Assembly: GCA_030611085.1 (NCBI GenBank)
Contig: JAUWQI010000005.1
Location: 1-61,097, forward strand
DNA: 61,097 nt
Source: Dehalococcoidia bacterium
GTDB taxonomy: Bacteria > Chloroflexota > Dehalococcoidia > GIF9 > AB-539-J10
Reading direction: 5' to 3'
This document shows positions 2,896-52,791 of this stretch, piece by piece. Below the pieces are notes generated by a model. That model saw nothing but the letters and a program-made list of their open reading frames with translations, was not told the DNA's origin and ran no database searches. Position numbers and translations under genes: made by a program. How positions within the stretch are numbered: position 1 is the stretch's first letter; every line of letters begins with the position of its first letter.

Positions 2896-2907
2896 AAAAA
2901 TTGGCAA

Positions 2908-5668: not shown

Positions 5669-5932
5669 TCAATCCCAAATCTCATCCTCGGCAAAACCTT
5701 CCTCTAACCCCATTTCATCAGCTTCTTCCTCCGTATGCGTGGCGAAAGTTTCTTTTTGACTTAGGGAGTCTTTCAGACATACGAAGGAACGGGAAATGAG
5801 TCTCCTTACCTCGGAGCCGCATTGGGGGCATCTTTTAAGAGGCTCGTCATTCATTCCCTGCCTTATCTCGAATCTATCTCTACAAAGCTCACAATGAGTT
5901 TTGCCTATAGCTCTGTATTCATAAATTGGCAT
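5669..5932 (-). CDS. FmdB-family zinc-ribbon protein
   Basis: MPIYEYRA...HCELCRDRF...CPQCGSE (CxxC...CxxC). The start is placed at Met-20 of the listed ORF, with AGAGG upstream. Acidic tail. Confidence 0.75.
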   Translation of the reverse strand: MPIYEYRAIGKTHCELCRDRFEIRQGMNDEPLKRCPQCGSEVRRLISRSFVCLKDSLSQKETFATHTEEEADEMGLEEGFAEDEIWD

Positions 5933-29748: not shown

Positions 29749-29798
29749 AAATTTGTTTAGAGTTTAGAGATTAGTATTTAGAATTTCCCGTTAGTGGA
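29749..29798. repeat. ctaaactctaaac-family element (reversed)
   Basis: aaatttgtttagagtttagagattagtatttagaatttc. Confidence 0.7.
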
Positions 29799-29808
29799 GG
29801 GGCGAATA

Positions 29809-31718: not shown

Positions 31719-33220
31719 AAACATATTTACCGTCAAGGTTTATCATAGAACGAGACCCATCTCGGTGCATTCAATGCAAAGTGTGTGTTAACCAGTGCAC
31801 CTTTGATGTGCATTACTATGATGCTGAAGACGATGAAGTAAGAAGCCACGAGGAGAACTGTGTTGGTTGCCACCGCTGCGTGATATTCTGCCCTACCAAT
31901 GCTTTGACTGTGAGAAGAAATCCGCTGGACTATCGAGAAAATTACAACTGGCGTCCTGAGGTTATTGAAGACATCATCAAGCAGTCTGAAACTGGCGGTG
32001 TGCTTCTTACAGGAATGGGCAACGACAAAGGTTATCCCATTTACTGGGACCACTTGCTTCTTAATGCCAGCCAGGTAACTAACCCCTCGATTGACCCACT
32101 CCGTGAGCCCATGGAGCTAACTACCTATTTGGGGCAGAAACCTGACAGGGTAGAGATTGAACCTAGCTCGCTGAGTCTTAAAACGCAGCTTGCCCCCCAA
32201 GTCAAGCTTGATACTCCCATAATGTTCGCTGCTATGTCTTATGGTGCTGTGAGCATTAATGTGCATAAATCCTTGGCTAGAGCTGCTGCTGGAGCGGGAA
32301 CTTTGTGGAATACAGGCGAAGGAGGGCTTCACCCCGAATTGTATAAATATGGAAACAACACCGTTGCTCAAGTAGCTTCAGGACGATTTGGCGTTCATCC
32401 CGAATATCTTGATGTAGCCAGAGTGATTGAAATTAAGATTGGGCAAGGTGCTAAGCCCGGTATTGGAGGACATCTTCCCGGAGAGAAAGTAAGCGCTGAG
32501 GTATCAGCAACCCGGATGATTCCTGAGGGGACAGATGCTCTATCCCCAGCCCCACAGCATGACATTTACTCTATTGAGGATCTGGCACAGCTTGTCTATG
32601 CACTGAAAGAGGCAACAAACTATACCAAGCCAATAGCAGTGAAGATAGCTGCTGTTCACAACTCAGCGGCCATCGCTAGTGGCATGGTGCGGGCAGGAGC
32701 CGATATTATAGTTCTCGATGGGCTACGTGGAGGCACTGGCGCTACACCTAAGATTATTCGTGATAATGTGGGAATTCCTATCGAGTTAGCCCTTGCCTCA
32801 GTGGATACTCGTTTGAGGCAGGAAGGCATCCGTAACCAAGCCTCTATTGTAATCTCCGGAGGAATTAGAAACAGTGGTGATGTGGCTAAAGCGATTGCTT
32901 TGGGTGCCGACGCTGTCTATATTGGAACTGCAGCTCTTGTTGCTCTCGGTTGCACTTTATGTCAGCAATGCCATACTGGCAAATGCGCCTGGGGTATTTG
33001 CACTTCCAATCCGGCATTGACTAAGAGGGTTAACCCCGACATCGGGGCTAGACGGTTGACTAACCTCCTTCGTGGTTGGAGTCTTGAACTTAAAGATATA
33101 CTGGGAGGTATGGGCATAAATGCTATTGAGAGCCTTCGTGGCAATCGCCTTCAACTAAGAGGCATTGGACTTACTGATACCGAGTTGGAAATTCTAGGAG
33201 TAAAGATGGCGGGGAGCTAG
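31715..33220 (+). CDS. Glutamate synthase FMN/Fe-S (domain-2-like) subunit with N-terminal 2x[4Fe-4S] ferredoxin module
   Basis: 501 aa, with [40 protein letters not shown] and [27 protein letters not shown]. Confidence 0.88.
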
Positions 33221-33276
33221 AGATGACAGCTTAATTAGTCCTCTCCCTTGAAGGGAGAGGACTAAGGTGAGGGTGC

Positions 33277-34029
33277 ATGAAAAATAATCAAGTGGTAAAG
33301 ATAGATGCTAGTGGCATTTTCTATAGAGAGCTCAATGCCAAGCTGCGGGAAGTAGTATCGGATGGAGTTCAAAAAATTGAGCTATGCAATATCTATGGGC
33401 AGAGATATATCGGCACAGACCTGGATAAGCCGGTGGAAATTGAAATATTTGGCACTCCTGGCAATGATTTAGGTGCCTTCATGGATGGTCCCAAGATTAC
33501 TGTCCACGGCAACGCCCAGGATGGTTGCGGCAATACCATGAATAATGGGGAGATAATCGTTCATGGTCATGCTGGAGACATCACCGGTTTATCAGCCAGG
33601 GGAGGCAAGATATTCATTAGAGATAATGTTGGCTATCGGGCTGGCATCCACATGAAGGAGTATCAAGACAGGAAGCCCGTAGTGGTTATCGGAGGCACTG
33701 CCCAGGACTTCTTAGGCGAGTATATGGCTGGAGGAGTTCTCATTCTGCTGGGGCTAAACCTGAAGAAAGGCGAATGTCATAAAGCTAACTTTATCGGAAC
33801 TGGAATGCATAGCGGCGTCATTTATATGAGGGGAAATGTTCAGGATTTCCAACTCGGCAAGGAGGTGGGTGTTGCTGAACTTGATGAAAAGGATGGTTTG
33901 GTTTTAAAGGAACTCGTGAGCGAGTTTGCTTCTCATTTTGGTTACGCTGCAGAGGAAATATTAAAACACAAGTTTGCTAAATTGTTCCCTCTCCACCTCC
34001 GTCCCTACGGCAGGCTTTATGCTTATTAG
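33277..34029 (+). CDS. GXGXG-motif protein (glutamate synthase domain-3-like subunit)
   Basis: 250 aa. Repeated glycine motifs VHGNAQDGCGNTMNNGEIIVHGHAGD...ARGGKIFIRDNVG. Confidence 0.82.
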   Translation: MKNNQVVKIDASGIFYRELNAKLREVVSDGVQKIELCNIYGQRYIGTDLDKPVEIEIFGTPGNDLGAFMDGPKITVHGNAQDGCGNTMNNGEIIVHGHAGDITGLSARGGKIFIRDNVGYRAGIHMKEYQDRKPVVVIGGTAQDFLGEYMAGGVLILLGLNLKKGECHKANFIGTGMHSGVIYMRGNVQDFQLGKEVGVAELDEKDGLVLKELVSEFASHFGYAAEEILKHKFAKLFPLHLRPYGRLYAY

Positions 34030-34830: not shown

Positions 34831-36238
34831 ATGTGCGGAATTATCACGATTTATGGGAACAATGCTAGCCATTGGGAATCTGATTTAAATGCTATGTTAG
34901 ACAAGTTATCTCACCGCGGTCCAGATGACCAAGGTACATATGTGGATAGCAACATCGCAATGGGGCAAACAAGGCTTTCGATAATGGATGTCGCTGGAGG
35001 CAAGCAGCCCATATTCAGTGAGGATGGGCGAAAGTGCATTGTATGCAACGGTGAGATTTATAACTATCCCGTTCTAAAAGATGAGCTTCGACAACATCGC
35101 TTCTGCACCAATAGCGATACTGAGGTAATTATTCACCTATTTGAAGAAGAAGGAGAGGGGTCGGTCTCCAGATTAGATGGAATGTTTGCCTTTATCCTCT
35201 ACGATGGAGAAAACATACTTGTTGCCAGGGACCCACTGGGTATAAAACCCCTCTATTATGGATGGAAAGATGGCTGTCTCTTTTTCGCCTCGGAGTTTAA
35301 GGTGCTGGACGGGGTGGTAGATAGAGTTCAGGAATTCCCTTCAGGGTACTACTATTCCTCAAAGAACGGTTTGGTTCAATACTATTTCCTTCCCGAAGTT
35401 ACTGATTGGGAAGATGATGTACACGAGATCACTGACCGGCTGCATGAAATACTGAGTAAAGCAGTGCAAAAGCGCTGGAGGTCTGATGTGCCGCTGGGTT
35501 GCTTTTTGAGCGGCGGTATTGATAGTAGCCTGATATCCGCTGTATCGAAGCAGCACTTTGACCATCTGGATACCTTCTCTGTCGGACTAGAAGGAGCCGC
35601 TATTGACCTTGAATATGCGAGAAAGGCATCTGCCTTTCTGGGAACTGAGCATCATGAATATATCTATACCAAAGATGAAGCATTGGAAGCATTGCCAGAT
35701 GTGATTTATCACCTGGAATCCTTCGACCCTGCTCTAGTAAGAAGTGCAATTCCTTGTTATTTTGTATCAAGACTCGCTAGCGATTATGTAAAGGTAATAC
35801 TTACCGGGGAAGGAGCAGATGAGGTCTTTGCCGGCTACCACTACATTAAACGATTAAAAAATACGGAGGCGGTTCAAGATGAAACCGTCCGGATTCTTAC
35901 TGGTTTACACAATATGAATCTTCAAAGAGTAGATCGTGCCACTATGGCACACTCCATAGAGGGAAGAGTGCCGTTCCTCGATATAGATTTTGTGGAGACC
36001 TAAGATAGAGTTTGCTGCTGGCTGTGGCTCGGAACGACTGATTACAAATCTTGCCGAGGATGAAATCTCAGACGCTGAATTTGAGAAAGAGAAAGAACTG
36101 CATAAGGATGCCAAGATTTTATCCAAGGAGGAACTCTACTACTTCAGGATATTCAGGAGCTTTTTCAACACCGATGGTGAGATTGAAGCTATCGGTAGAT
36201 GGAAGGGCGGTTTTGCTTCAGAAGGCGCTGAGCTATAA
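34831..36238 (+). pseudogene. asnB: Asparagine synthase (glutamine-hydrolysing), interrupted by an internal deletion and frameshift at about 35990-36003
   Basis: MCGI N-terminal nucleophile and PP-loop FLSGGIDSS. Frame 1 ends at ...RVPFLDIDFVET*. Frame 2 continues (L)WRPKIEFAAGCGS...SKEELYYFRIFRSFF, matching the usual AsnB C-terminus. About 35 aa normally lying between these blocks are absent. Confidence 0.7.
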
Positions 36239-36322
36239 GCCAATCACATTTTTGCCCTTTCAGGGCAAATACAATGAACTAATTTATAATAAAATTCTTA
36301 TTTTGACCTTTGGTCAAACTTT

Positions 36323-36360
36323 GTAACACAAATTTAACCTGTTCGTAATATTCTGGAAAC
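36323..36360 (+). promoter_or_regulatory. Four pentamer boxes at 11-bp phasing upstream of amt: a candidate operator for the OmpR/GlnR-like regulator
   Basis: GTAAC-acaaat-TTAAC-ctgttc-GTAAT-attctg-GAAAC, with exact n6 spacers counted from the sequence. It lies ~145 nt upstream of the amt ATG. Confidence 0.5.
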
Positions 36361-39956: not shown

Positions 39957-40298
39957 ATGCATGAGCTGGGGGTAACCCAAAGCATTGTTAATATTGTTTT
40001 AGATAAGGCCAAAGAGGCTCAAGCTAGCAAGATTGTTCAAATTAATTTAGTTGCTGGTGAATTAGCAGGTTTTGTGCCAGAGTGTATCCAATTCTATTTT
40101 GATATCCTCAGTAAAGATACTATCGCCCAGGAGGCGAGTCTCATTTTTATCCCAGCACCAGCCCAACTACGCTGCCGAAATTGCTCCACCTCTTTTCACC
40201 TTCAGAATACCTTGTGGTCTTGTCCTAAGTGCGACAGCCAGAGCGTGGAAATAATCGGAGGGCGAGAGCTGTATGTAGAAAGTATGGAGGTGGAATGA
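39957..40298 (+). CDS. hypA: Hydrogenase nickel-insertion protein HypA
   Basis: 113 aa, with MHELGVTQSIV and zinc motif CRNC...CPKC. Confidence 0.9.
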   Translation: MHELGVTQSIVNIVLDKAKEAQASKIVQINLVAGELAGFVPECIQFYFDILSKDTIAQEASLIFIPAPAQLRCRNCSTSFHLQNTLWSCPKCDSQSVEIIGGRELYVESMEVE

Positions 40299-40966
40299 GG
40301 AAAATAGAAGTTGTGCAAAATATTCTTGGGGCTAATGACTCTATAGCGGCTCAAAATCAGCGGTTACTGGATGAGCATAGAATCTTCGCTCTTAACATTA
40401 TGTCATCTCCAGGTGCGGGCAAGACTAGCCTTATTCTACAGACCATAGCTAAGTTGAGGAGTAAGCTAAGTATAGCCGTTATCGAAGGCGATGTTGCTTC
40501 CACGATTGATGCTGAAAAAATAAAAGGCCATGCCGCAGCAGTGGTTCAGATAAATACGCAGAACATGCCTGAAAGTTGCTCTCTGATTGCCAATATGATA
40601 GACCGCGCACTTAAAAGTTTGCCTTTGGAAGATATAAATTTGCTTTTGATTGAGAATGTGGGCAACCTCATCTGCCCTTCTGAGTTTGCCTTGGGGGAAC
40701 ACAAAAGAGTAGTGATTTCTAGCTTGCCTGAAGGGGATGATAAACCTATTAAATACCCTATGATATTCGCCGATGCTGATGCGGTGGTGATAAATAAGAT
40801 GGATTTTCTCCCATATGTTGATTTTGACATTGCTGCCTTTCGCCATGCCGTTGAAGGTCTAAATCCAAAAGTCAAATTCTTTGAGGTTTCTTGCAAAACC
40901 GGCATTGGAATAGAAGGTTGGTGCTCCTGGTTGCTAACAGAGACGCAGCTTAACCCACATAAATAA
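40295..40966 (+). CDS. hypB: Hydrogenase maturation GTPase HypB
   Basis: ATGA overlap with hypA. P-loop SSPGAGKTSL and ENVGNLICP. No His-rich N-terminus. Confidence 0.9.
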   Translation: MRKIEVVQNILGANDSIAAQNQRLLDEHRIFALNIMSSPGAGKTSLILQTIAKLRSKLSIAVIEGDVASTIDAEKIKGHAAAVVQINTQNMPESCSLIANMIDRALKSLPLEDINLLLIENVGNLICPSEFALGEHKRVVISSLPEGDDKPIKYPMIFADADAVVINKMDFLPYVDFDIAAFRHAVEGLNPKVKFFEVSCKTGIGIEGWCSWLLTETQLNPHK

Positions 40967-40991: not shown

Positions 40992-41021
40992 TGGACAACG
41001 AAGGACATTGAGTAATATAAT
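40992..41021 (+). promoter_or_regulatory. Sigma70-type promoter for the hydrogenase operon
   Basis: TGGACA (40992-40997), an 18-nt spacer, then TATAAT (41016-41021), about 120 nt upstream of the small-subunit ATG. Confidence 0.45.
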
Positions 41022-41140: not shown

Positions 41141-42118
41141 ATGGCTAAACCTAAAGTTGCCTTTTACTGGTGTGCTTCGTGTGGGGGATGTGAAGAGACA
41201 GTTGTTGACCTTGCTGAGGATATTCTGATAGTGGCGGACGCCGTGGATATAGTCTTCTGGCCTGTGGCTTTGGATTTTAAAAAGAAGGATGTTGCAGCTC
41301 TGTCTGATGGCAGCATAGCGGTGAGCTTTATAAATGGCGCTATAAGAACAGGAGAGCATGAGGAGATGGTTAAGCTATTACGAAGAAAATCTGGGCTTGT
41401 AGTGGCCTTCGGCTCTTGTGCTCACATGGGTGGGATACCGGGACTGGGAAACTTCTGGACGAGAGATGCGATTTTCCAGAGAGTTTACAAAGAAGTCCCA
41501 ACTGTAGAAAATCCTGAGGGAATTACCCCACAGGTGAAAACACAAGTCGAAGTTGGCGAGCTTACGCTGCCAGAATTTTATGATACCGTAAAGACTTTAG
41601 ACCAGACTATACCAGTAGATTACTACCTTCCCGGATGTCCTCCCCCGCCAGATTTAATAATGCAGGCGGTAAATGCCATTCTCAAAGGTGAACTCCCAGA
41701 GAAAGGAGCGGTGCTTGCCCCCGATAAAGCCTTGTGTGATACATGCCCGAGGGCAGAAACGAAACCAGAGAAGATATCAATAAAGGAAATAAAGAGGCCT
41801 CATGAAGTGGAACTCGACCTTGAGAAATGTTTTCTCGCGCAAGGTGTAATTTGTCTTGGTCCTGCCACCCGCTCGGGGTGTGGTGAAAGATGCATTAGAG
41901 CCAATATGCCATGCCGAGGATGTTTTGGGCCCACAAGCGGGGTTGAAGACCACGGGGCAAAGGGACTTTCCATGATTGCCTCCCTTCTAGGGCTAGAAGA
42001 AGAGGAAAGGATGACTGAGGAAGATGTTAAAAAGTTAGTCGACGGGGTTGTTGACCCGGCAGGGACATTCTATAGATTTAGCTTGCCCGCTTCTCTGCTC
42101 AGAAGAAAGAGAGTATAA
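41141..42118 (+). CDS. [NiFe] hydrogenase small subunit, group 3 type (no Tat signal)
   Basis: 325 aa, with MAKPKVAFYWCASCGGCEETV, GSCAHMGGIPG and LPGCPPPPD, plus distal Cys clusters. Confidence 0.88.
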   Translation: MAKPKVAFYWCASCGGCEETVVDLAEDILIVADAVDIVFWPVALDFKKKDVAALSDGSIAVSFINGAIRTGEHEEMVKLLRRKSGLVVAFGSCAHMGGIPGLGNFWTRDAIFQRVYKEVPTVENPEGITPQVKTQVEVGELTLPEFYDTVKTLDQTIPVDYYLPGCPPPPDLIMQAVNAILKGELPEKGAVLAPDKALCDTCPRAETKPEKISIKEIKRPHEVELDLEKCFLAQGVICLGPATRSGCGERCIRANMPCRGCFGPTSGVEDHGAKGLSMIASLLGLEEEERMTEEDVKKLVDGVVDPAGTFYRFSLPASLLRRKRV

Positions 42119-42135
42119 GGTATAGGAGGGTAAAG

Positions 42136-43596
42136 ATGAGAAAAATAACGATAGACCCTATAACCAGGCTCGAGGGACATGGAAAGATAGAGATATTTCT
42201 TGATGAAGAAGGAGAGGTTAACAGAGCTTATTTTCAGATTCCTGAGCTTCGGGGATTTGAGAAGTTCTGCGAGGGAAGACCCGCAGAGGAGATGCCAAGA
42301 ATAACCCCGAGAATCTGCGGTGTGTGCCCTACTGCTCATCATCTATGCGCGACCAAAGCTCTTGATGACCTCTTTAAAGTCGAGCCAACCCCAACAGCAA
42401 AGAAGATAAGGGAACTTATGAATTGTGCTTTCCAAGCGGAAGACCACATATTCCACTTCTTCTTTCTCGGTGGACCCGACTTTGTTATTGGTCCAGAAGC
42501 TCCTGCTGCCGAAAGGAATATCTTGGGAATTGTTGCCAAGCTTGGGAAAGAAACAGGGTTGAAGGTTATAGAGGTAAGGAAAAGGCTGCGAGAAGTTATA
42601 GAAATGATAGGGGGAAAGGCAATCCACCCTGTCTGTGGTTTGCCTGGAGGTGTATCAAAGCCTGTAACTGAGGAAGAAAGGAAGAGATTTATTGAGACCG
42701 CCGAATATTCGGTGGAATTTTCCAGATGGGCTCTTGAGCTATTTGATAACACAGTGCTCAAAAATAAGGAATATCTCGACCTTGTCACTGGGGATATTTA
42801 TAAGCATAGGACATACTACATGGGGATGGTGGATGAAAATAATAAGTTAAACTTTTACGATGGTGATTTGAGGGTTGTTGACCCGAATGGCAAAGAGCTT
42901 GTCAAATTCAAAGGCCGCGATTATCTTGACCATATTAGGGAACATGTTGAGCCCTGGACTTATGTAAGGTTTTCTTATCTTAAGGATGTGGGCTGGAAGG
43001 GATTTGTTGATGGAGAGGAAAGCGGTGTTTTCAGAGTAAATAGCTTGCCTCGACTAAATGTTGCCGATGGAATGGCGACACCCCTCGCCCAAGAAGCTTA
43101 TGAGAAGATGTATGCAGCATTAGGCGGGAAGCCAGTCCATAATACCTTGGCTTTTCATTGGGCTCGGCTCATTGAGACACTTTATGCCTCCGAAAGAATG
43201 CTTGAGCTCGCCCGTGACCCTGAACTTACCTCACCCAATATAAGAAACATCCCTACAGAAACTCCAAAGGAGGGCGTGGGAGTGATAGAAGCACCAAGAG
43301 GTACACTTTTCCACCACTATAAAACCGATGAAAAAGGAATTATTACGGAAGCTAATCTGATTGTTGCCACACAGAATAATTCCGCCTGTATGTGCATGGA
43401 TATTGAGAAGGCAGCCAAATCACTTATACACAAAGGAAATGTTCCTGAAGGGATTCTCAACATGGTTGAGATGGCGTTTAGAGCCTACGACCCGTGCCAT
43501 GGCTGTGCTACCCATTCCCTTCCTGGAAGAGTGGCTCTTGAAGTGGATGTCCATGACTTCCGGGGAGATATAGTAAAGAAATTGAAAACAGAATAA
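42136..43596 (+). CDS. [NiFe] hydrogenase large subunit, group 3 type
   Basis: 486 aa. N-terminal ligand motif RICGVCPTAHH and C-terminal DPCHGCATHS, followed by a cleavable extension. Confidence 0.95.
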   Translation: MRKITIDPITRLEGHGKIEIFLDEEGEVNRAYFQIPELRGFEKFCEGRPAEEMPRITPRICGVCPTAHHLCATKALDDLFKVEPTPTAKKIRELMNCAFQAEDHIFHFFFLGGPDFVIGPEAPAAERNILGIVAKLGKETGLKVIEVRKRLREVIEMIGGKAIHPVCGLPGGVSKPVTEEERKRFIETAEYSVEFSRWALELFDNTVLKNKEYLDLVTGDIYKHRTYYMGMVDENNKLNFYDGDLRVVDPNGKELVKFKGRDYLDHIREHVEPWTYVRFSYLKDVGWKGFVDGEESGVFRVNSLPRLNVADGMATPLAQEAYEKMYAALGGKPVHNTLAFHWARLIETLYASERMLELARDPELTSPNIRNIPTETPKEGVGVIEAPRGTLFHHYKTDEKGIITEANLIVATQNNSACMCMDIEKAAKSLIHKGNVPEGILNMVEMAFRAYDPCHGCATHSLPGRVALEVDVHDFRGDIVKKLKTE

Positions 43597-43615
43597 CTAG
43601 GAAAGGAGGAAAAGA

Positions 43616-45409
43616 ATGGCTGGTTATGCTCAAGTTGAGGAAGTAGTTAATGAAACCACAGGGAAAATATATCAGGCTCCCTGTCAGATGGCTTGTCCCC
43701 TTAAAATGGATACCCAACGCTCTCATGCTATGATTGCCCTTCTTCCTTCAGACATCCGAGAGGCAAAGGAACAGATGAGGAAGATAGGCGATGAAGTTTA
43801 TGAGAAAAACCCTTTGTTTCCAATATGTGCCTACATCTGTGGGAAATTCTGTGAGACAGAATGCAATTATAAAGATGAGGCTGGAGCAGTAAGAAGAAGA
43901 ATGCTCTTGCGGTTTCTCAGCGAGCATTATCTCCCACATCTGGGAGGTAAACCTCCTTTTGCCCCTCCCTCTTCTAAGGGGAAGGTTGCCATAGTTGGAG
44001 GTGGACCTGGGGGTTTAATGTGTGCTTACGCGCTGAGCGAAAAGGGTTACCAGGTTACCATCTTTGAACAGAAATCTGAGTTGGGAGGTGCTCTGAGATA
44101 CATTCCTCGATATCGTCTTCCCAAAGAAGTAATAGATACCACTTCGAATAATTTGCTAAGGATTGCCAATGTAAAAGTTGAATTCGGGGTGAAAATAGGT
44201 GGTGAAGGGAAGACCTTGGATAACCTTAAAAGCGAGGGCTACCAGGCTATATTTATCGCTACAGGCACCATCCTTCCCAGACCCCTCACCATTGGAAGGG
44301 ATTTAGTGCCAGGAGCAGACCTAGGGGGAGTTGAATATGGCTTGAACCTTCTTTCTGATGTATCGCAAGATAAAGTTTCTCCACAGCTATATCAGGGTAA
44401 GAAGGTGGTAGTTGTAGGAGGTGGCAATGTAGCCTTTGATGTGGCAAGGACTGCCCGAAGGCTCGGCGGAGATGTCTCCGTTGTCTGCCTTGAGTGTGAG
44501 GATAAATCGTCTAAGGATGGAATCCCAGCCGATGTAGAGGAAATAGAGGGGGGAAGTGAAGAGGGAATAAGGATGGTTTACTCTCGAGGCGTCCAGGAGA
44601 TAATGGGAAAGAGTGGGAAATTTGAGAAACTAAAGTGTCCACTTTGTACTCAGGTTTGGGCTGAGAATGGAATGTTTAGTCCTGAGTTTAATTTTGACGA
44701 TGTAATATATCTTGAGGGCGATGTTTTGCTGATTACTATAGGGCAGATGTGGGAAAGAGCAATTTTCCAGCAAGAAGGCCTATTGAACGATAAGGGAAGG
44801 CTTGATGTCGATCAGTCTACCCTCATGAGCAATCTTAAAGAGGGGGTTTTCATCGGGGGAGATTTAAAGCGGATAGGTTTTGCTGTGGATGCGATGAGAG
44901 ATGGCATGGTAGCAGCGGAGTCCATAGAGCGGTATCTTAGTGGTGCAGATTTGAGAGCGGGGAGAGAGAAGGAATACGAAAGTGCACCTATCCCAAAGCT
45001 TTTGGACTATAAAACACAGCCCCAGCTTAAATGGGTGCCGGCAGAAGAAAGATTAAACTTCGAACTCTTTGAGAAGGGATTCACTCTTGAGGAAGCCAGA
45101 GGAGAGGCCATGAGATGTCTTTACTGTGGCCCGTGCAAGAGTTGCAAAGGATGCGTGGCATTAGAACTTCAGCCTGAGATACCAGAAATCGAAGTTAATA
45201 AGGATTTATGCAGCGGATGTGGTATCTGCGTTGCCGTATGTCCTTATGATGCCGCTAAACTAGAGAAATCCGAGGAAGGGCTAGTATCAGTTACAGATGA
45301 CCTTAAGTGTAAGCGGTGTGGAGCATGTGTCGCTGCTTGTCCTGCTGAAGCAAGAGCTATCAAGGATAAGTTCCTGGAAACTGTAGCTACTGCCCTTGGA
45401 ACATTATAA
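43616..45409 (+). CDS. GltD/NfnB-like FAD-NAD(P) oxidoreductase with extra C-terminal 2x[4Fe-4S] domain
   Basis: 597 aa, with VAIVGGGPGGLMCAYAL...LGGALRYIPRYRLPKEV, VVVVGGGNVAFDVAR, CSGCGICVAVCPYDA and CKRCGACVAACPAEA. Confidence 0.8.
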   Translation: MAGYAQVEEVVNETTGKIYQAPCQMACPLKMDTQRSHAMIALLPSDIREAKEQMRKIGDEVYEKNPLFPICAYICGKFCETECNYKDEAGAVRRRMLLRFLSEHYLPHLGGKPPFAPPSSKGKVAIVGGGPGGLMCAYALSEKGYQVTIFEQKSELGGALRYIPRYRLPKEVIDTTSNNLLRIANVKVEFGVKIGGEGKTLDNLKSEGYQAIFIATGTILPRPLTIGRDLVPGADLGGVEYGLNLLSDVSQDKVSPQLYQGKKVVVVGGGNVAFDVARTARRLGGDVSVVCLECEDKSSKDGIPADVEEIEGGSEEGIRMVYSRGVQEIMGKSGKFEKLKCPLCTQVWAENGMFSPEFNFDDVIYLEGDVLLITIGQMWERAIFQQEGLLNDKGRLDVDQSTLMSNLKEGVFIGGDLKRIGFAVDAMRDGMVAAESIERYLSGADLRAGREKEYESAPIPKLLDYKTQPQLKWVPAEERLNFELFEKGFTLEEARGEAMRCLYCGPCKSCKGCVALELQPEIPEIEVNKDLCSGCGICVAVCPYDAAKLEKSEEGLVSVTDDLKCKRCGACVAACPAEARAIKDKFLETVATALGTL

Positions 45410-45416
45410 ATGTAAA

Positions 45417-45866
45417 ATGAAGACGCTCATTTTAGGAATCGGGAATACTATCCTGACTGATGACGGGGTCGGAATAAGAGTCGCTCAAAAGATTAAGGAG
45501 AAAAAACCAGATTTAGAAGTAATAGAGGCGAGCGAGACTGGGGTTGCGCTCCTCGACTATGTAGTGGGCTATGATAAGCTCATTATCATCGATTCCATAA
45601 AAACTGGCAACGGGGAACCAGGAGAGCTTTATAAGCTTAATCTGAAAGACTTACGGGCCAGCACGAATTTATTCTCCTCTCATGGCATAGATATTGCTAC
45701 CGCATTTGAGCTTGGACAAGGTTTAGGCTATGAAATGCCCAAGCATATCAGCATATATGGAGTGGAAACAAAGAATACAATGACACTTGGTGAGAGATGC
45801 ACCGAAGAAATAGAGGAAAAACTGCTATCTATTGTAAAGCAAATTATGGAGGAGGAAAAACTATGA
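45417..45866 (+). CDS. Hydrogenase maturation endopeptidase (HycI/HoxW/FrhD type)
   Basis: MKTLILGIGNTILTDDGVGIRV. The start is taken at Met-8 of the listed ORF. Confidence 0.85.
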   Translation: MKTLILGIGNTILTDDGVGIRVAQKIKEKKPDLEVIEASETGVALLDYVVGYDKLIIIDSIKTGNGEPGELYKLNLKDLRASTNLFSSHGIDIATAFELGQGLGYEMPKHISIYGVETKNTMTLGERCTEEIEEKLLSIVKQIMEEEKL

Positions 45867-46252
45867 ATGAATTTGAACCTAAGGTTGTAGTTTTCCGTTG
45901 TAACTGGTGTTCGCGAGATGGAGAGACTTCAAAAATGGAGAGCGCGGCTAACACCAAACTAATCCGAACTATGTGCTCAAGCAGGGTAGACCCATCCTTC
46001 GTTCTAAAAGCCTTCGCTAGCGGAGCTGATGGTGTGATGATAATGGGGTGCCATCCAGGAGATTGCCACTATCTTTCCGGTAATTATAAAACCATGCGGA
46101 GGGTGATGCTGCTTAAGAATATGCTTTCACAATTTGGGATAGAGCCGGAAAGACTAAAACTAGAATGGGTTGCCCCATCCGAGGAAACCAAATTCCCAGA
46201 AGTGGTGGGAAACTTCACGAGTAAAGTAAAGGAACTAGGCCCAATCCGCTAA
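45863..46252 (+). CDS. mvhD: MvhD-like hydrogenase iron-sulfur subunit
   Basis: MNEFEPKVVVFRCNWCS...MCSSRVDP...GCHPGDCHY. ATGA overlap with the protease gene. Confidence 0.8.
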   Translation: MNEFEPKVVVFRCNWCSRDGETSKMESAANTKLIRTMCSSRVDPSFVLKAFASGADGVMIMGCHPGDCHYLSGNYKTMRRVMLLKNMLSQFGIEPERLKLEWVAPSEETKFPEVVGNFTSKVKELGPIR

Positions 46253-46265
46253 TCCCCCTCACCCA

Positions 46266-48800
46266 ATGTTACTAAAGACTTTGCGGCTAGCTCGTCTCAG
46301 TGTCCGTGGCATTGTTCAAGGAGTCGGTTTCAGACCTTTTGTTTATGGGTTAGCCACCAAACATAATTTGAAAGGATGGGTATGTAATACTTCTGCGGAT
46401 GTCAAAATTGAGATAGAGGGAGAGACAGAGGCTATTGAGCAGTTTTATTTGGAGCTTAAAACAAAAGCCCCGCCTCTAGCTCATATTGAAGATACAACTA
46501 TCAACTACTATCCCCCCACTGGTTATAAAAACTTTGAAATTCGCCATAGCATCGCTGAGGAGGGAAAATACCAGCTTATCTCTCCAGATATTGCTACCTG
46601 CCAAGCTTGCTTAAGCGAACTGCTAAATCCCAATGACCGGCGTTATCGCTACCCCTTTACCAATTGCACCAACTGCGGGCCTCGCTTTACTATAATCGAG
46701 GATATGCCTTACGACCGCCCTAAAACCACTATGCGCTCCTTCCAGATGTGTCCGCAATGCCAGGCAGAGTATGATGATCCACTAGACCGCCGCTTTCATG
46801 CTCAGCCAAATGCCTGCCCTAAATGTGGCCCTCATGTTGAGTTGGTTGATAACCAGGGCAGGGATATCACTGCAGCAAGCCAACGCCTTGAGCCCTTCAC
46901 CTCTTGTCATTCCGAGAGAGCCCTTCGCTCCCCATGTCATTCTGAGTGTAGCGAAGAGTCTCATTCCGATGCTATAGCCTGTGCCAGCCAGCTCCTGAAA
47001 GAGGGGAAAATCGTTGCTATTAAGGGCTTGGGGGGATTCCTTTTAGCCTGTGATGCTACCAGCGCAAGTGTAGTTAAAGCCTTACGGGAAAGGAAAAAGC
47101 GCTCCTCTAAGCCATTTGCCATAATGGTAGCCGACATTGAGGAAGCTAAAAAGCATTGCTATGTCTCTCCTGAGGAAGAGAAATTGCTTACCTCTCCCCA
47201 AAGCCCTGTTGTGCTTATGAGGTGGAAGGAAGGCTCGTCTGTATCTCCAGAGGTGGCTCCAAACTTAGCCTATCTCGGAGTTATGCTCCCATATACGCCT
47301 TTACATCACATTCTACTCCGAGATACTCAATTGCCTTTGGTGATGACCAGCGGCAATCTCAGCGAAGAACCTATTGCCAGGGATAATGATGAAGCCCTGA
47401 GAAGGCTTTCAGGAATTGCCGATTATTTCCTAATTCACAATCGGGATATATATTCTCGCTATGATGACAGTGTGGCTATAGTGGAAAGAGGAGTCAGCCA
47501 GCTTGTAAGACGAGCTCGCAGTTACGCTCCTTATCCCATTACTCTGCCTTTTAAAACTAAACAGGTGCTTGGCTGCGGCGCTGAAATGAAAAATACTTTC
47601 TGTCTGACTAGAGATAATTATGCCTTCTTATCACAGCACATTGGCGACATGGAAAATATGGAGACCTTGGAGCACTTTGATAACACCATCTCCCTTTATA
47701 AAAGGCTGTTTCGCATTGAGCCTGAAATTATCGCTTACGACCTTCACCCTGATTATCTTGCCACCAAATATGCCCAGGAGCTAGGTAACTCTAATGGCAT
47801 CAAGCTTATTCCCGTTCAGCATCATCATGCCCATATTGTTAGCTGCATGGCTGACAACGAACTTAACTCTCCGGTTATCGGTGTCGTTTTTGATGGCACA
47901 GGAATGGGTATGGATGGGCATATTTGGGGAGGGGAATTCCTCGTAGCGGACTACCTCAGTTGTAAAAGATTGGGGCATTTGGAATACCTGCCTTTGCCTG
48001 GAGGGGATGCTGCGACAAAAAGACCCTATCGCATTGCCATTGCTTATATTCTCAGCTTATTAGGAGAAGATGCCTTAAATACCGTCATTGCGGCCAATTG
48101 CCAACTGCCAACTGCCAACTCTTATGTCATTGCGAGCGCAGCGAAGCAATCTCAATCAACTTTTATGCAACAAGTTAGTGAAGTCGAAATGGAAATTATC
48201 AAGCGCCAAATAGCAAGAGAGCTAAACTCGCCACTGACCTCAAGCATGGGGCGCCTGTTTGATGCTATATCAGCACTAATAGGAATAAGAGGTGAAATAG
48301 ATTGTGAAGGACAGGCGGCCGTAGAGCTGGAAATGGCTGCCTATAAGGACTGCCCCGGGGCCTTCGCTTTCTGTCATTCTGAGGGAGGGAAGCGACCGAA
48401 GAATCTCACCCCAGATAAACTCCTCAAAGAAACGGACGATAAAGAAAGCTACCCATATAGCATAACCGAGGATAAAGGAATAAGAATTATAGGCTTGGGC
48501 AGCTTATTCTCAGCCATAATCGAAGACTTAAAGCGGGGCATATCTCAAGGAGAAATATCAGTTAAATTTCACGACACCATAGCTCAAATGACCAATGCTA
48601 TGTGCCAACTGATAGCCAGTGAAACTAATATCAACCAAGTAGCCTTAAGTGGTGGCGTATTCCAAAACCGATTGCTATTAAGAAAGACAGTTAGCTTACT
48701 GGAAAACAGTGGCTTCCAGGTGTTTACCCACCAACAGGTACCTTGCAATGATGGCGGCATATCTTTAGGACAAGCAGTTATCGCCAATTTTGCTAAGTAA
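46266..48800 (+). CDS. hypF: Carbamoyltransferase HypF (with three in-frame repeat insertions)
   Basis: 844 aa. Acylphosphatase-like VRGIVQGVGFRPFVY, zinc fingers CTNCGPRFTII/CPQCQAEY/CPKCGP, YrdC-like KGLGGFLLACDA, and Kae1-like FDGTGMGMDGHIWGGE. Confidence 0.95.
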   Translation: MLLKTLRLARLSVRGIVQGVGFRPFVYGLATKHNLKGWVCNTSADVKIEIEGETEAIEQFYLELKTKAPPLAHIEDTTINYYPPTGYKNFEIRHSIAEEGKYQLISPDIATCQACLSELLNPNDRRYRYPFTNCTNCGPRFTIIEDMPYDRPKTTMRSFQMCPQCQAEYDDPLDRRFHAQPNACPKCGPHVELVDNQGRDITAASQRLEPFTSCHSERALRSPCHSECSEESHSDAIACASQLLKEGKIVAIKGLGGFLLACDATSASVVKALRERKKRSSKPFAIMVADIEEAKKHCYVSPEEEKLLTSPQSPVVLMRWKEGSSVSPEVAPNLAYLGVMLPYTPLHHILLRDTQLPLVMTSGNLSEEPIARDNDEALRRLSGIADYFLIHNRDIYSRYDDSVAIVERGVSQLVRRARSYAPYPITLPFKTKQVLGCGAEMKNTFCLTRDNYAFLSQHIGDMENMETLEHFDNTISLYKRLFRIEPEIIAYDLHPDYLATKYAQELGNSNGIKLIPVQHHHAHIVSCMADNELNSPVIGVVFDGTGMGMDGHIWGGEFLVADYLSCKRLGHLEYLPLPGGDAATKRPYRIAIAYILSLLGEDALNTVIAANCQLPTANSYVIASAAKQSQSTFMQQVSEVEMEIIKRQIARELNSPLTSSMGRLFDAISALIGIRGEIDCEGQAAVELEMAAYKDCPGAFAFCHSEGGKRPKNLTPDKLLKETDDKESYPYSITEDKGIRIIGLGSLFSAIIEDLKRGISQGEISVKFHDTIAQMTNAMCQLIASETNINQVALSGGVFQNRLLLRKTVSLLENSGFQVFTHQQVPCNDGGISLGQAVIANFAK
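46890..46968. repeat. Tandem TGTCATT-family half-elements inside hypF
   Basis: ...cttgtcattccgagagagcccttcgctccccatgtcattctgagtgtagcgaagagtctc... encodes SCHSERALRSPCHSECSEESH. Confidence 0.85.
48084..48153. repeat. Composite repeat inside hypF: half element + 4 heptamers + full TGTCATT element
   Basis: gtcattgcgg; then gccaatt/gccaact/gccaact/gccaact at 48093-48120; then tgtcattgcgagcgcagcgaagcaatctc at 48125-48153. It encodes VIAANCQLPTANSYVIASAAKQSQ. Confidence 0.85.
48361..48407. repeat. 5' half of the long-hairpin repeat inside hypF
   Basis: ccttcgctttctgtcattctgagggagggaagcgaccgaagaatctc encodes FAFCHSEGGKRPKNL. Confidence 0.85.
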
Positions 48801-48827: not shown

Positions 48828-48884
48828 TGTAGTAGTTGCCTGATTTACCAGGCTCCTTATTGCCCAACGAATTGGGCAACTACA
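48828..48884. repeat. Inverted doublet of GTAG-type hairpins (REPIN-like)
   Basis: GTAGTTGCCTGAtttaCCAGGC ... TTGCCCAAcgaaTTGGGCAACTAC. The outer gtagttgcc/ggcaactac arms are complementary. Confidence 0.8.
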
Positions 48885-50684: not shown

Positions 50685-51794
50685 GTGAAATTCATTGATG
50701 AGTATCAAAATAGCGAGCTAGCCACAAAACTAGCGCAAAGAATTGCTGACCGTTCCACCAAGCCAATCAGGTTAATGGAATTCTGTGGTGGGCACACTCA
50801 TGCCATAATGAGGTATGGAATCCGCCAGCTAGTGCCCAAAACAGTGGAGATGAGGTCGGGGCCGGGCTGTCCCGTATGCGTCACAGCAACCAGCGATTTG
50901 GATAAGGCTATTGCGATAGCTCATTTGCCCGGTGTTATCATCACTACTTTCGGGGATATAATAAGGGTCCCTGGCAGCTACTCTAGCTTACAGCAGGCAA
51001 AGGCTGAAGGAGCCGATATACGAGTTGTCTATTCCATTATGGATGCTGTGGAAATAGCCAAAGCTAACCCCAGGAAATCAGTCATTTTCATCGGCATCGG
51101 TTTTGAGACCACGGCACCAACCATAGCTGCCTCTATAATTAAGGCAAAGAAGGAGGAAGTAGAGAATTTCTATGTCCTTTCCCTGCTCAAGTTAACCCCA
51201 CCAGTGATGAAGACGCTGCTAGATTTGGGCGAGGTGAAGCTAGACGGCATTGTTGGCCCAGGACATGTCAGCGTTATAATTGGCTCTTACCCCTATGAAT
51301 TTATCCCCAGGAATTATGGGGTCGCCTGCGTTATCTCAGGCTTTGAGCCATTGGATATCCTGTTATGTATAGACAAGCTAGTGGAGCAAGTTGAAAGTGG
51401 CAAGCCACAGGTGGAGATAGCCTACCGTCGTGGAGTAAAGCCCCAAGGCAATAAGAAAGCTCTGGAGTCGATGAATGAGGTTTTTGAAATTGATGGTGCT
51501 GACTGGCGAGGAATTGGCATTGTGCCTCAAAGTGGCCTGAAGATTAACCAAAAATACCAGCATTTTGATGCCGACAAAGCCTTCCCCGACTTGTCATTGC
51601 GAGCGAAGCGAAGCAATCTCGAAAAGGAGCCCAGGGGATGTCGCTGCGGAGATATACTGCGTGGTGTAGCCACACCGCTTGAGTGTAAGCTTTTTGGCAA
51701 GGTTTGCACTCCAGAAAAGCCTGTAGGTCCTTGCATGGTCTCCAGTGAAGGTGCCTGTGCTGCCTATTATCAGTATGGAGCAAGCTATGAATGA
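50685..51794 (+). CDS. hypD: Hydrogenase maturation protein HypD (with one in-frame repeat insertion)
   Basis: 369 aa, GTG start, with GPGCPVCV, GFETTAP, CRCGDILRG and CMVSSEGACAAYY. Confidence 0.95.
   Translation: MKFIDEYQNSELATKLAQRIADRSTKPIRLMEFCGGHTHAIMRYGIRQLVPKTVEMRSGPGCPVCVTATSDLDKAIAIAHLPGVIITTFGDIIRVPGSYSSLQQAKAEGADIRVVYSIMDAVEIAKANPRKSVIFIGIGFETTAPTIAASIIKAKKEEVENFYVLSLLKLTPPVMKTLLDLGEVKLDGIVGPGHVSVIIGSYPYEFIPRNYGVACVISGFEPLDILLCIDKLVEQVESGKPQVEIAYRRGVKPQGNKKALESMNEVFEIDGADWRGIGIVPQSGLKINQKYQHFDADKAFPDLSLRAKRSNLEKEPRGCRCGDILRGVATPLECKLFGKVCTPEKPVGPCMVSSEGACAAYYQYGASYE
51592..51620. repeat. TGTCATT-family repeat inside hypD
   Basis: tgtcattgcgagcgaagcgaagcaatctc encodes LSLRAKRSNLE. 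Confidence 0.88.
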
Positions 51795-52791
51795 TACCAT
51801 CCTTTTAGCTCATGGCAGTGGTGGCAAATTAAGCCACGAACTGGTGGAGAAGAGATTTCTCCCCTTCCTGACTAATCCTATGTTAAATAAATTGGATGAC
51901 TCAGCTATTTTCGAAGCCAATGGGCGTTTGGCCTTTACTACCGATAGCTATGTAGTCAATCCTATTTTCTTTCCCGGTGGAGATATAGGCAAGTTGGCAA
52001 TTTGTGGTACAGTTAACGATTTATCTATGAGCGGTGCCAAACCTCTATATTTAAGCCTATCTGCGATTATAGAGGAGGGCTTCTCCCTAAAAGAACTTGA
52101 ACGCGTAGTGCAGTCAATAGAGGCAGTGGCTAAAGAAGCTGAGGTAAGTATAATCACTGGAGATACCAAGGTAGTGAATCACGGACAGGCTGATAAGTTA
52201 TTTATCAATACCTCTGGAATTGGCATTATTCCTGCTGAGGTTGATATCTCCGGAGCTAACGCCAAAGACGGAGACAAAATCATTCTGAGTGGCACTATCG
52301 GCGACCACGGCATAGCCATAATGAGTCAGCGTGAGGGACTGAGGTTTTCTGTGCCTGTGGAAAGCGATTGCGCTCCACTGAATAAACTTGTGGCTCAAAT
52401 GCTGGAAGCCTCACTGAAAATCCATTGCCTCCGTGACCCTACTAGAGGCGGACTGGCTACCACGCTTAATGAATTTGCTGAGCAATCTAAAGTGGGCATT
52501 GTGATACAGGAGGATAAGATACCGATAGAAGAAGGAGTTAAGGCAGCCTGTGAGCTTTTGGGCTTCGACCCTATTTATGTCGCCAATGAGGGTAAATTGG
52601 TAGCCATAGTTGAGCCAAACGATGCTGATAAAATTCTGGCTCAAATGAAGCAAAATACCTGTGGAAAAGATGCTGCTATCATTGGGGAGGTAATCAGTGA
52701 GCATCCTGGAAGGGTAATCATGAAAACAAAGCTAGGTCCTTCTCGGATTGTTGATATGCTCTCAGGAGAGCTACTACCGAGGATATGTTGA
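51787..52791 (+). CDS. hypE: Hydrogenase maturation protein HypE
   Basis: MNDTILLAHGSGGKLSHELV..., TDSYVVNPIFFPGGDIG, and C-terminal PRIC. It overlaps hypD by 8 nt. Confidence 0.95.
   Translation: MNDTILLAHGSGGKLSHELVEKRFLPFLTNPMLNKLDDSAIFEANGRLAFTTDSYVVNPIFFPGGDIGKLAICGTVNDLSMSGAKPLYLSLSAIIEEGFSLKELERVVQSIEAVAKEAEVSIITGDTKVVNHGQADKLFINTSGIGIIPAEVDISGANAKDGDKIILSGTIGDHGIAIMSQREGLRFSVPVESDCAPLNKLVAQMLEASLKIHCLRDPTRGGLATTLNEFAEQSKVGIVIQEDKIPIEEGVKAACELLGFDPIYVANEGKLVAIVEPNDADKILAQMKQNTCGKDAAIIGEVISEHPGRVIMKTKLGPSRIVDMLSGELLPRIC

Follow-up and report, generated by a model that had tools for sequence, protein, structure and literature searches.

A Mvh-type [NiFe] hydrogenase operon of Dehalococcoidia that encodes a GltD/NfnA-like flavoprotein in place of HdrABC

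The operon at positions 41141-48800 of the window (viz. the whole 61,097-nucleotide stretch of DNA, from an uncultured member of Dehalococcoidia, that was analysed) encodes a soluble, group 3c-like (Mvh-type) [NiFe] hydrogenase, in which the genes for the MvhG-like small subunit, the MvhA-like large subunit and the adaptor protein MvhD are accompanied by that for a 597-aa iron-sulfur flavoprotein rather than by those for HdrABC. Judging from the sequences, and with a confidence only somewhat better than even, the product of this operon is most likely a linear, non-bifurcating H2:NAD(P)+ oxidoreductase consisting of MvhA, MvhG, MvhD and the flavoprotein. Such an enzyme would function like the group 3b and 3d hydrogenases, on a group 3c chassis. 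The flavoprotein-linked hydrogenase is assembled from known parts, and no published characterisation of a flavoprotein-linked Mvh module was found in the literature.

Gene content of the operon and of the genome

The operon extends without large interruptions from the small-subunit gene through hypF, the intergenic gaps being 17, 19, 7 and 13 nt, with one ATGA overlap between the protease gene and mvhD; these genes, together with the hyp genes and the promoter-like site described below, are all on the plus strand. The small subunit (41141..42118; PF01058), whose N-terminus is MAKPKVAFYWCASCGGCEE, lacks a twin-arginine (Tat) signal and contains 13 Cys residues, enough for three [4Fe-4S] clusters, and its best matches are MvhG (5odc_E, 232 bits, full length) and VhuG (202 bits). 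In the large subunit (42136..43596), the L1 motif RICGVCPTAHH (residues 58-68) and the L2 motif DPCHGCATHS (residues 452-461) contain the four Cys ligands of the Ni-Fe site, and L2 is followed by a cleavable C-terminal tail of 25 residues, a dedicated protease gene being present in the operon. The best matches of this subunit are VhuA (413 bits), the NiFe-Bfu enzyme of A. mobile (7t2r_D, 402 bits) and MvhA (5odc_F, 400 bits), as against 324 bits for the group 3d enzyme 5xf9_D and about 108 bits for a group 3b enzyme. The scores for VhuA and VhuG are under their equivalog cut-offs (413 vs 800 and 202 vs 450, respectively), and the hydrogenase is classed as group 3c-like based on its closest similarity to MvhA/VhuA and MvhG/VhuG.

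These two genes are followed by those for the flavoprotein (43616..45409), the [NiFe] maturation endopeptidase (45417..45866; TIGR00072, 109 bits; PF01750) and the [2Fe-2S] adaptor subunit MvhD (45863..46252; FlpD domain PF02662, 150 bits; 5odc_D, 144 bits), in which five of the six MvhD Cys residues are kept. The protease ORF is listed from 45396 and its true start is probably the ATG at 45417. For mvhD, listed from 45797, the likely start is at 45863, as indicated by homology (the 5odc_D alignment begins at residue 23 of the listed ORF), the Shine-Dalgarno sequence GGAGGAGG and the ATGA overlap with the protease stop codon. The final gene, hypF (46266..48800; carbamoyltransferase, TIGR00143, 825 bits), begins 13 nt 3' of mvhD, and a terminator-like hairpin lies beyond it at 48838-48853. 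Accessory maturation genes are found on both sides, viz. those for the nickel metallochaperone HypA (39957..40298; PF01155, 113 bits; TIGR00100, 98 bits, above its cut-off) and the nickel-insertion GTPase HypB (40229..40966; TIGR00073, 245 bits over residues 23-238) upstream, and hypD (50685-51794; PF01924, 499 bits) and hypE (51745-52791; AIRS/AIRS_C domains) downstream; the hypB ORF overlaps hypA and its true start is probably farther downstream. The best sigma-70-like match in the region (TGGACA-18-TATAAT, 40992..41021) is placed in the 174-nt gap 5' of the small-subunit gene and is a consensus match only (11/12), the number of promoter-like sites in this region being not above the shuffled expectation.

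All of the genes described in the original prediction were found, as were the Tat-less small subunit and the two large-subunit motifs, and its description of a Mvh-type chassis combined with a GltD/NfnB-superfamily flavoprotein and MvhD, but with neither Hdr nor the HoxFU/HyhBG diaphorases, is upheld. The absence of hdr genes that it noted for the window also holds for HdrA beyond it, as no HdrA was found in the 83%-complete source genome, where the best match (44 bits) covered the ferredoxin domain only. No CCG (HdrB/D) domain is present within the window and no HyhBG or HoxFU(E) diaphorase genes are present in the operon. No second MvhD was found in the genome (the operon MvhD has its sole FlpD domain), and no NuoF-type flavoprotein/diaphorase (Complex1_51K domain) was found in the genome or related loci. 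The genome, which is small and apparently that of a non-dehalogenating member of Dehalococcoidia, has a canonical NfnAB pair elsewhere (contig C6), and the only other hydrogenase found in it is a membrane-bound group 4 enzyme.

In comparison with the MvhADG-HdrABC and VhuADG-Hdr complexes of hydrogenotrophic methanogens (group 3c; PDB 5ODC, 9SW2), the large, small and MvhD subunits are clear homologues (400, 232 and 144 bits, respectively), and the C-terminal ferredoxin domain of the flavoprotein is like that of HdrA, with a fused MvhD following it in some relatives as in HdrA2. However, HdrA, HdrB and HdrC are lacking from the window operon, there is no heterodisulfide-type acceptor site, and a GltD-superfamily FAD/NAD(P) module takes the place of the bifurcating core, which in HdrA is thioredoxin-reductase-like.

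Conservation and ancestry of the module in Dehalococcoidia

Orthologues of the flavoprotein, which are well separated from its paralogues (>480 bits vs at most 367 bits), are present in 29 of the 401 sampled Dehalococcoidia genomes. MvhD adjoins the flavoprotein in 25 of these 29 genomes, and in 22 the same contig carries a large subunit no more than a few kb away, contig ends interrupting most of the other cases; the conserved four-gene architecture, for which the original prediction had proposed a check, is thus borne out. The genes occur in two different orders (viz. small subunit-large subunit-flavoprotein-protease-MvhD and flavoprotein-MvhD-small subunit-large subunit), due to which the association can be seen to outlast rearrangement. 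Further, two loci (L014 and L015) encode a flavoprotein with a fused MvhD domain, the arrangement being that of the HdrA-MvhD fusions. The subunits of the module have co-evolved, with the flavoprotein-linked large subunits forming a single clade (SH-aLRT 99) that is nested among the Hdr-linked Mvh enzymes and whose sister is a Hdr-linked clade from the same genomes.

The flavoprotein and its relatives

The flavoprotein (PRK12771, 325 bits) is made up of a Fer4_20 remnant, Rossmann folds for FAD and for NAD(P), and, at the C-terminus, a HdrA-type 2x[4Fe-4S] ferredoxin domain (residues 525-583), along with a CxxCxxCxxCxxC motif at residues 501-513. Its FAD and NAD(P) module is GltD/NfnA(Bfu)-like with a permuted topology, the RCxxC...CxxxCP segment that is N-terminal in NfnB being found here at residues 468-514. 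A family-specific Cys site is also present (C291, C294, C341 and C344), and all of the Cys motifs are conserved in the 32 orthologues that were aligned.

Over almost the whole 597 aa, the closest solved relatives are the Bfu-type NfnA/StnA proteins (9n5u_A, 191 bits; 8oh5_C; 9bov_A), and a Foldseek search with the predicted structure (one chain only, pLDDT 74.7) gave an E value of about 1e-39 over ~620 columns. The similarity to NfnL/NfnB is lower (about 140 bits; Foldseek TM about 0.73 on the target), and the GltD profiles TIGR01317 and TIGR01318 score 125 and 135 bits against cut-offs of 448 and 483. Its identification as a true GltD is rejected by these scores, far under the cut-offs, and by the lack of any co-localised Glu_synthase gene in the 29 other genomes; that as a bifurcating NfnB/NfnL is rejected by the permuted segment, the lack of a paired NfnA/NfnS, and the absence of the Glu ligand and of YRR. 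No PyrK-like gene is present in the window operon or in related operons. Both the sequence and the predicted fold thus place the flavoprotein nearest to the non-bifurcating NADPH-entry module of the Bfu-type NfnA/StnA, where the homologous FAD is a simple entry point for NADPH that ends a chain of clusters (PMC12018979).

The A subunit of Bfu-type NfnABC/StnABC (PDB 9N5U, 8OH5, 9BOV) shares with the flavoprotein the permuted topology (PCxxxCP N-terminal and EAxRCxxCG beyond the flavoprotein core), the presence of additional clusters following this core and, with the family consensus, the position of a Lys ligand (PMC12018979). However, the flavoprotein has neither the N-terminal [2Fe-2S] domain nor the formate-dehydrogenase-like C-terminal domain of these subunits, neither the operon nor the genome yielded a BfuBC (NuoF/NuoE-like) core, and the redox partner here would be a [NiFe] hydrogenase reached via MvhD. 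The NADH-dependent ferredoxin:NADP+ oxidoreductase NfnSL/NfnAB (PDB 4YLF, 5JCA) belongs to the same superfamily and shares the flavoprotein fold, but the window protein differs from it by the permuted N-terminal segment and the extra ferredoxin tail, and no NfnS/NfnA partner is encoded in its operon. In HdrL-MvhD of Desulfobacterium autotrophicum and in type III HdrA, which has a GltD insert, MvhD and Hdr-type ferredoxin domains are likewise combined with a GltD-like NAD(P)H module (PMC2702500, PMC12054007). A 910-aa HdrL-like protein, to which the flavoprotein shows about 31% identity, is encoded in a Hdr-Mvh operon of a relative from the same family; the flavoprotein differs from these proteins in lacking any HdrA flavin core and in being encoded inside the hydrogenase structural operon.

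Within the flavoprotein family the FAD motif, the dinucleotide motif GGGNVAFD and the remainder of the second Rossmann fold are invariant. The motif YRR, by which the 2'-phosphate of NADPH is recognised, is kept by every solved relative and every paralogue checked, whereas in all 32 orthologues the invariant sequence VCLECEDK stands in its place, with C344 also invariant and a (C/S)PxC motif nearby. The NAD(P) label given earlier to this protein needs qualifying, as the NADPH 2'-phosphate motif is missing, and due to this replacement the nucleotide used is uncertain, NADH being plausible. At position 98, where NfnB has Glu as a ligand of the FAD-proximal cluster, the family consensus is Lys (22 of the 32 orthologues) and the window protein has Leu.

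Proposed electron path, competing explanations and significance

In the mechanism that we favour, H2 would be split at the Ni-Fe site and the electrons would travel along the small subunit's three [4Fe-4S] clusters to the [2Fe-2S] cluster of MvhD. From MvhD they would enter the flavoprotein via its HdrA-type C-terminal ferredoxin domain, and then move through the CxxCxxCxxCxxC cluster and a further two clusters, those of the permuted GltD-type domain, to FAD, which would reduce NAD(P)+; this path would be reversible. A single linear wire of this kind, which terminates in a flavin that has a dinucleotide site, suggests a non-bifurcating H2:NAD(P)+ oxidoreductase. The net reaction proposed here, of H2 with NAD(P)+, is the same as that of groups 3b and 3d and of the GltD-linked [FeFe] hydrogenases of group A2, which is defined in HydDB by a GltD-type protein encoded beside the catalytic subunit (PMC5037454). 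However, the HyhBG and HoxFU diaphorases of groups 3b and 3d are unrelated to the flavoprotein, and the catalytic subunits here are of the 3c lineage. The family-consensus Lys ligand, which is typical of NfnA and differs from the Glu of the bifurcating NfnL, supports the linear path, while the replacement of YRR by VCLECEDK and the Leu of the window protein at the Lys-ligand position count against this interpretation.

It is possible, though we consider it rather unlikely, that the enzyme is instead a flavin-based bifurcating or confurcating hydrogenase, whose NfnB-like FAD couples H2, NAD(P)(H) and ferredoxin; in this rather unlikely event, the N-terminal clusters would form the branch to ferredoxin and the other branch would run via MvhD or the family-specific Cys site. 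In anoxic sediments, where H2 is typically very scarce, plain reduction of NAD(P)+ by H2 is thermodynamically marginal, which would favour a coupled mechanism. MvhD and the HdrA-type ferredoxin tail derive from a bifurcating system, and NfnL/NfnB, in which the homologous FAD is the site of bifurcation, are clearly related to the flavoprotein. The Arg of the (F/Y)RLP motif, which hydrogen-bonds FAD N5 in NfnL, is also invariant in the family as R167, but as the same Arg is found in non-bifurcating modules it is not discriminating (PMC12018979). Further, the NfnA/StnA modules, which are the closest full-length relatives, do not bifurcate, the Glu ligand seen in NfnL is missing, no NfnS-, HdrBC- or NuoF-like module for a third substrate is present in the operon (nor was one of the HdrA or NuoF type found in the genome), and every cluster fits on one linear wire. 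Due to the single wire and the lack of a third-substrate module, it will be incorrect to interpret the similarity to NfnB as evidence of bifurcation, and the hint of bifurcation drawn from it in the original prediction is weakened. The family-specific Cys site, which is invariant and beside the nucleotide pocket, could bind an extra metal centre and thereby provide a second electron path. On this basis the operon might represent an unrecognised bifurcating/confurcating class of [NiFe] hydrogenases, in which a NfnB-superfamily FAD replaces the HdrA centre and couples H2, NAD(H) and ferredoxin, while the site formed by VCLECEDK and (C/S)PxC binds an extra cluster serving as the second branch; this we regard as doubtful.

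It is improbable that the flavoprotein has given up pyridine nucleotides altogether, with its pocket binding a metal centre or other cofactor and the electrons from H2 passing to ferredoxin, a thiol/disulfide or another acceptor. The uniform change to VCLECEDK, which is not shared by the paralogues checked, is consistent with such a loss, and two stand-alone HdrD-like CCG proteins are encoded elsewhere in the genome. However, the invariance of GGGNVAFD and of the rest of the second Rossmann fold is unexpected for a dead site, and the two CCG proteins are encoded on contigs other than that of the operon, among unrelated genes. Very improbable is an ordinary Mvh hydrogenase serving a HdrABC in the unassembled 17% of the genome, with the flavoprotein as an unrelated neighbour. 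Although related Dehalococcoidia, including one from the same family, do carry HdrA-MvhD-MvhG-MvhA operons, the Hdr-linked hydrogenase of these relatives is a distinct paralogue that has a MvhD to itself, the window large subunit is placed in the tree inside the flavoprotein-linked clade and not in the Hdr-linked clades, and the flavoprotein gene begins 19 nt after the large-subunit gene and ends 7 nt before the protease gene.

A split archaeal-type glutamate synthase is located at 29794-34029, 7 kb upstream of the hydrogenase operon in a nitrogen-assimilation block (amtB, glnB, glnA, asnB), and it was confirmed that no GltD-type subunit accompanies it in the window, but the suggestion that the flavoprotein is this missing subunit, so that H2 would drive glutamate synthesis, is hardly credible and finds no support. 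The gene for the FMN domain of glutamate synthase was not found in 12 of the 29 other orthologue-bearing genomes (5 of the 19 high-quality ones) and in the remaining 17 is on another contig or >200 kb away, never near the hydrogenase, and glnA is found in none of about 37 related loci. The scores of 125-135 bits are far below the GltD cut-offs of 448-483, the FMN subunit has its own 2x[4Fe-4S] input domain, and the hydrogenase operon is set apart from the glutamate synthase genes by seven unrelated genes and a probable promoter.

Group 3c hydrogenases in genomes and metagenomes are usually read as heterodisulfide reductase-linked and bifurcating. Here, the 3c chassis, including the MvhD adaptor, was on one occasion re-wired to a flavoprotein of the pyridine-nucleotide type and then kept across many members of Dehalococcoidia, a class abundant in sediments and aquifers, and automatic annotations equating Mvh with Hdr-coupled bifurcation will misstate the hydrogen metabolism of these organisms. 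The replacement of the NADPH-binding motif by a Cys-rich sequence poses a concrete and testable biochemical question. Our favoured interpretation is that the enzyme is cytoplasmic and probably serves to keep the NAD(P)H pool in balance with H2, and if it is indeed a plain H2:NAD(P)H oxidoreductase, it would be a compact link of H2 to the nucleotide pool in bacteria whose genomes are very small.

The hydrogenase operon and its published relatives

The six genes between 41141 and 48800 on contig C5 of the host genome (1.16 Mb, 83%-complete) are all co-directional, with intergenic gaps of 17, 19, 7 and 13 nt and one gene pair overlapping by ATGA, and the nearest public relatives of the genes in the window are from uncultured Dehalococcoidia. 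Because a promoter/terminator scan yielded a number of sites not above that in shuffled sequence, the boundaries of this operon are based on gene spacing only. The first gene encodes the small subunit, which starts with MAKPKVAFYWCASCGGCEE, lacks a twin-arginine signal, contains Cys residues sufficient, from its sequence, for three [4Fe-4S] clusters, and has as its top matches MvhG (5odc_E, 232 bits) and VhuG. The large subunit carries the motifs RICGVCPTAHH and DPCHGCATHS followed by a 25-residue tail, and it scores 400 bits against MvhA (5odc_F) and 402 bits against the A. mobile NiFe-Bfu large subunit, versus lower scores against a group 3d enzyme (324 bits) and group 3b enzymes (about 108 bits). 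These genes are followed by those for a 597-aa flavoprotein (43616-45409), the maturation protease (trimmed start at 45417), the [2Fe-2S] adaptor subunit MvhD (trimmed start at 45863; 144 bits to 5odc_D) and, as the sixth gene, hypF. The genes hypA and hypB lie immediately upstream of the operon, and hypD and hypE a short distance downstream. The original prediction of a group-3 [NiFe] hydrogenase accompanied by a GltD/NfnB-like flavoprotein and MvhD was thus accurate in its gene content, the only correction being to the starts of the protease gene and mvhD.

In papers on Dehalococcoides and Dehalogenimonas, a cytoplasmic "Vhu" hydrogenase (VhuA/VhuG) is named, and no account of its partner or function is given in them (PMC6005880, PMC13390414, PMC8516407, PMC2930330). 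Chloroflexi genome papers mention "Mvh" and no more (PMC3971608, PMC5736913), and reviews on bifurcation present Mvh only with Hdr (PMC6085437, PMC5861303). The related ideas of HdrL-MvhD and type III HdrA have already been described (PMC2702500, PMC12054007). No published description or test of the combination of Mvh with the flavoprotein was found in our literature search.

Identity and cofactor sites of the flavoprotein

The designation GltD/NfnB-like holds in so far as the flavoprotein, judged by its sequence, is a member of the GltD/NfnB/DPD superfamily. However, it is neither a true GltD, for which it scores 125-135 bits against cut-offs of 448-483, nor NfnB, and among solved structures it is closest to the A subunits of the Bfu-type NfnABC/StnABC transhydrogenases (9n5u_A with 191 bits, then 8oh5_C and 9bov_A). 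The same relatives rank best by fold, when the AlphaFold2 model (pLDDT 74.7) is compared by Foldseek (E ~1e-39 over ~620 columns), and NfnL/NfnB (~140 bits), DPD and GltD (~102 bits) follow in that order at lower sequence scores. In alignments, the segment "nFe..G.T.EEA..EA.RCxxC", which is located at the start of NfnB, is permuted in the flavoprotein to residues 468-514, behind the flavoprotein core, and the N-terminus begins at PCxxxCP. This arrangement is shared with NfnA/StnA and is also found in other multi-cluster paralogues. Downstream of the permuted segment there is a CxxCxxCxxCxxC motif and then a 2x[4Fe-4S] ferredoxin domain, which most closely resembles the one at the C-terminus of HdrA.

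Alignment of 32 orthologues shows full or nearly full conservation of the FAD motif, the dinucleotide motif GGGNVAFD, the GGD motif, Cys 23, 27, 71, 75, 79 and 83 of the N-terminal domain, the permuted RCxxC (501, 504) with the succeeding Cys 507, 510 and 513, and the eight ferredoxin Cys. Where bifurcating NfnL has Glu and NfnA has Lys, 22 of the 32 orthologues carry Lys, and the window protein carries Leu. The Arg near flavin N5 was also considered as a discriminator of bifurcating from non-bifurcating FAD; it is conserved in both kinds and hence uninformative (PMC12018979). All of the solved relatives and paralogues aligned have the YRR(S/T) motif for the NADPH 2'-phosphate, whereas the flavoprotein family has in its place an invariant VCLECEDK (residues 290-297), which is absent from all of the paralogues checked. 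Due to this replacement, the nucleotide used by the flavoprotein may be NADH instead of NADPH. Alternatively, an extra metal centre may be bound in the nucleotide pocket; a (C/S)PxC motif, the second Cys of which is invariant, is found close to VCLECEDK at residues 341-344.

Possible route of electrons and other redox partners

The simplest reading, which we are inclined to prefer, is that the complex works as a reversible H2:NAD(P)+ oxidoreductase without bifurcation, built as one wire. Electrons would pass from the Ni-Fe site to the three clusters of the MvhG-like subunit, then to the [2Fe-2S] cluster of MvhD, from there into the ferredoxin tail and the next clusters of the flavoprotein, and finally through FAD to NAD(P)+. 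Bifurcation involving ferredoxin, which could be argued for from the thermodynamics at low H2 and from the extra Cys site in the flavoprotein, appears unlikely, as there is no gene for a third-substrate module and, in the nearest structural relatives, the homologous flavin is not a site of bifurcation. In NfnA, this FAD is a mere entry point for NADPH at the terminus of a linear cluster chain, and the bifurcating site of the complex is located elsewhere (PMC12018979).

The absence of hdr genes noted in the window was followed up in the 83%-complete genome, where a search for FlpD, CCG and HdrA proteins, covering the case of Hdr being encoded outside the window, revealed a single FlpD/MvhD domain, no HdrA (the top match, of 44 bits, being to a ferredoxin domain) and two HdrD-like CCG proteins, on contigs C24 and C25, with unrelated genes as neighbours. 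A Bfu or Hox diaphorase elsewhere in the genome was similarly rejected, as no NuoF-type domain was found in it. No [FeFe] hydrogenase was found in the genome, no reductive dehalogenase was detected by a genome search lacking a positive control, and a canonical NfnAB pair is present on contig C6. Apart from the enzyme in the window, the sole hydrogenase found in the genome is a membrane-bound group-4 (Ech/Mbh-like) [NiFe] enzyme on contig C13 (locus L086, 5518-10634, minus strand), with a 347-aa large subunit bearing RICGICSFTH and a C-terminal end of DPCIACTER, NuoB-, NuoH-, NuoL- and NuoI-like partners, and an adjoining FdhE-like gene.

H2-linked glutamate synthesis, which had also been proposed, is not borne out. 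The window does encode a split glutamate synthase without a GltD subunit, made up of a GATase (29794-30951), an FMN subunit (31715-33220) that has a 2x[4Fe-4S] domain of its own, and a GXGXG piece (33277-34029). However, among the other 29 genomes that carry the hydrogenase-linked flavoprotein, 12 yielded no Glu_synthase gene and the remaining 17 never have it near the hydrogenase, and glnA is absent from all of the related loci; the proximity of the two gene clusters in the window looks incidental. Within this archaeal-type glutamate synthase block (29794-34029), hisF (30951-31718) sits between the GATase and FMN pieces, and a PadH/NirB-like flavoprotein (27737-29038) and pdxT are found just upstream. 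At 34831-36326, an asparagine synthase ORF encodes 390 aa spanning only model positions 1-411 of 554 and is followed by two short overlapping ORFs; the sequence of this locus points to truncation of the gene or to a frameshift.

Conservation and descent of the gene set

When one genome per species was scanned for orthologues at >50% identity, about 37 loci with the flavoprotein were found, nearly all of which have MvhD and both hydrogenase subunits alongside, so that the four-gene architecture is conserved. It occurs in two gene orders, viz. small subunit-large subunit-flavoprotein-protease-MvhD (order A, as in the window) and flavoprotein-MvhD-small subunit-large subunit (order B). Among 401 sampled Dehalococcoidia genomes, where orthologues (>480 bits) are separated from paralogues (<=367 bits) by a clean gap, orthologues are present in 29 genomes besides the window's own, with MvhD adjacent in 25 and the large subunit within a few kb on the same contig in 22; the exceptions are mostly at contig ends. 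In two loci (L014 and L015) the flavoprotein and MvhD domains are fused. With regard to cultured Dehalococcoides mccartyi, the closest named records (L025 and L027) are from uncultured Dehalococcoidaceae. Many flavoprotein-bearing genomes also contain classical HdrA-MvhD-MvhG-MvhA operons.

In some order-A loci (L007, 5774-7420, and L009, 11938-13581), ~3 kb of extra genes separates the flavoprotein gene from that of the protease, and past mvhD lies another copy of the flavoprotein (67% identity). At three loci (L040, L041 and L151, the last in genome G212 of the window's own family) the flavoprotein orthologue adjoins hypF without neighbouring hydrogenase subunits or MvhD. As the only Mvh found in G212 is Hdr-linked and at a separate locus, the flavoprotein there would be either orphaned or served in trans. 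In L031, L034-L037 (~280-5800) and G253:C1:339481-340887, the order-B operon is directly preceded by another [NiFe] hydrogenase, of a more distant kind (RICGICPVSHH and DPCLSCSTH), with its own GltD-like protein, in which the YRR motif is kept; this may point to labour being divided between nucleotides.

In six Mvh-type large subunits of related Dehalococcoidia (L112, L116, L118, L119, L120 and L121, from genomes G118, G322, G310 and G285), the N-terminal motif (RICGV-U-PGAHH) has an in-frame TGA in place of its second Cys codon, the C-terminal motif remaining DPCxxC. Their sequences place these six in the Hdr-linked part of the large-subunit tree, with Hdr as their putative partner. MvhD genes with in-frame TGA are present in these genomes as well. 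As selenocysteine in the known [NiFeSe] hydrogenases is located in the C-terminal motif, the N-terminal position looks unusual.

In a tree of 46 large subunits, all from Dehalococcoidia, constructed by a quick maximum-likelihood search and rooted with a more distant hydrogenase type, all of the flavoprotein-linked large subunits of both gene orders group in a single clade (SH-aLRT 99). This clade is sister to an Hdr-linked one, and more Hdr-linked lineages lie outside both, the partner labels being verified for 5 of the 16 Hdr-type rows. This branching pattern fits a scenario in which the flavoprotein would have taken the place of Hdr once, with vertical co-evolution thereafter, and it argues for the joint working of the four proteins.
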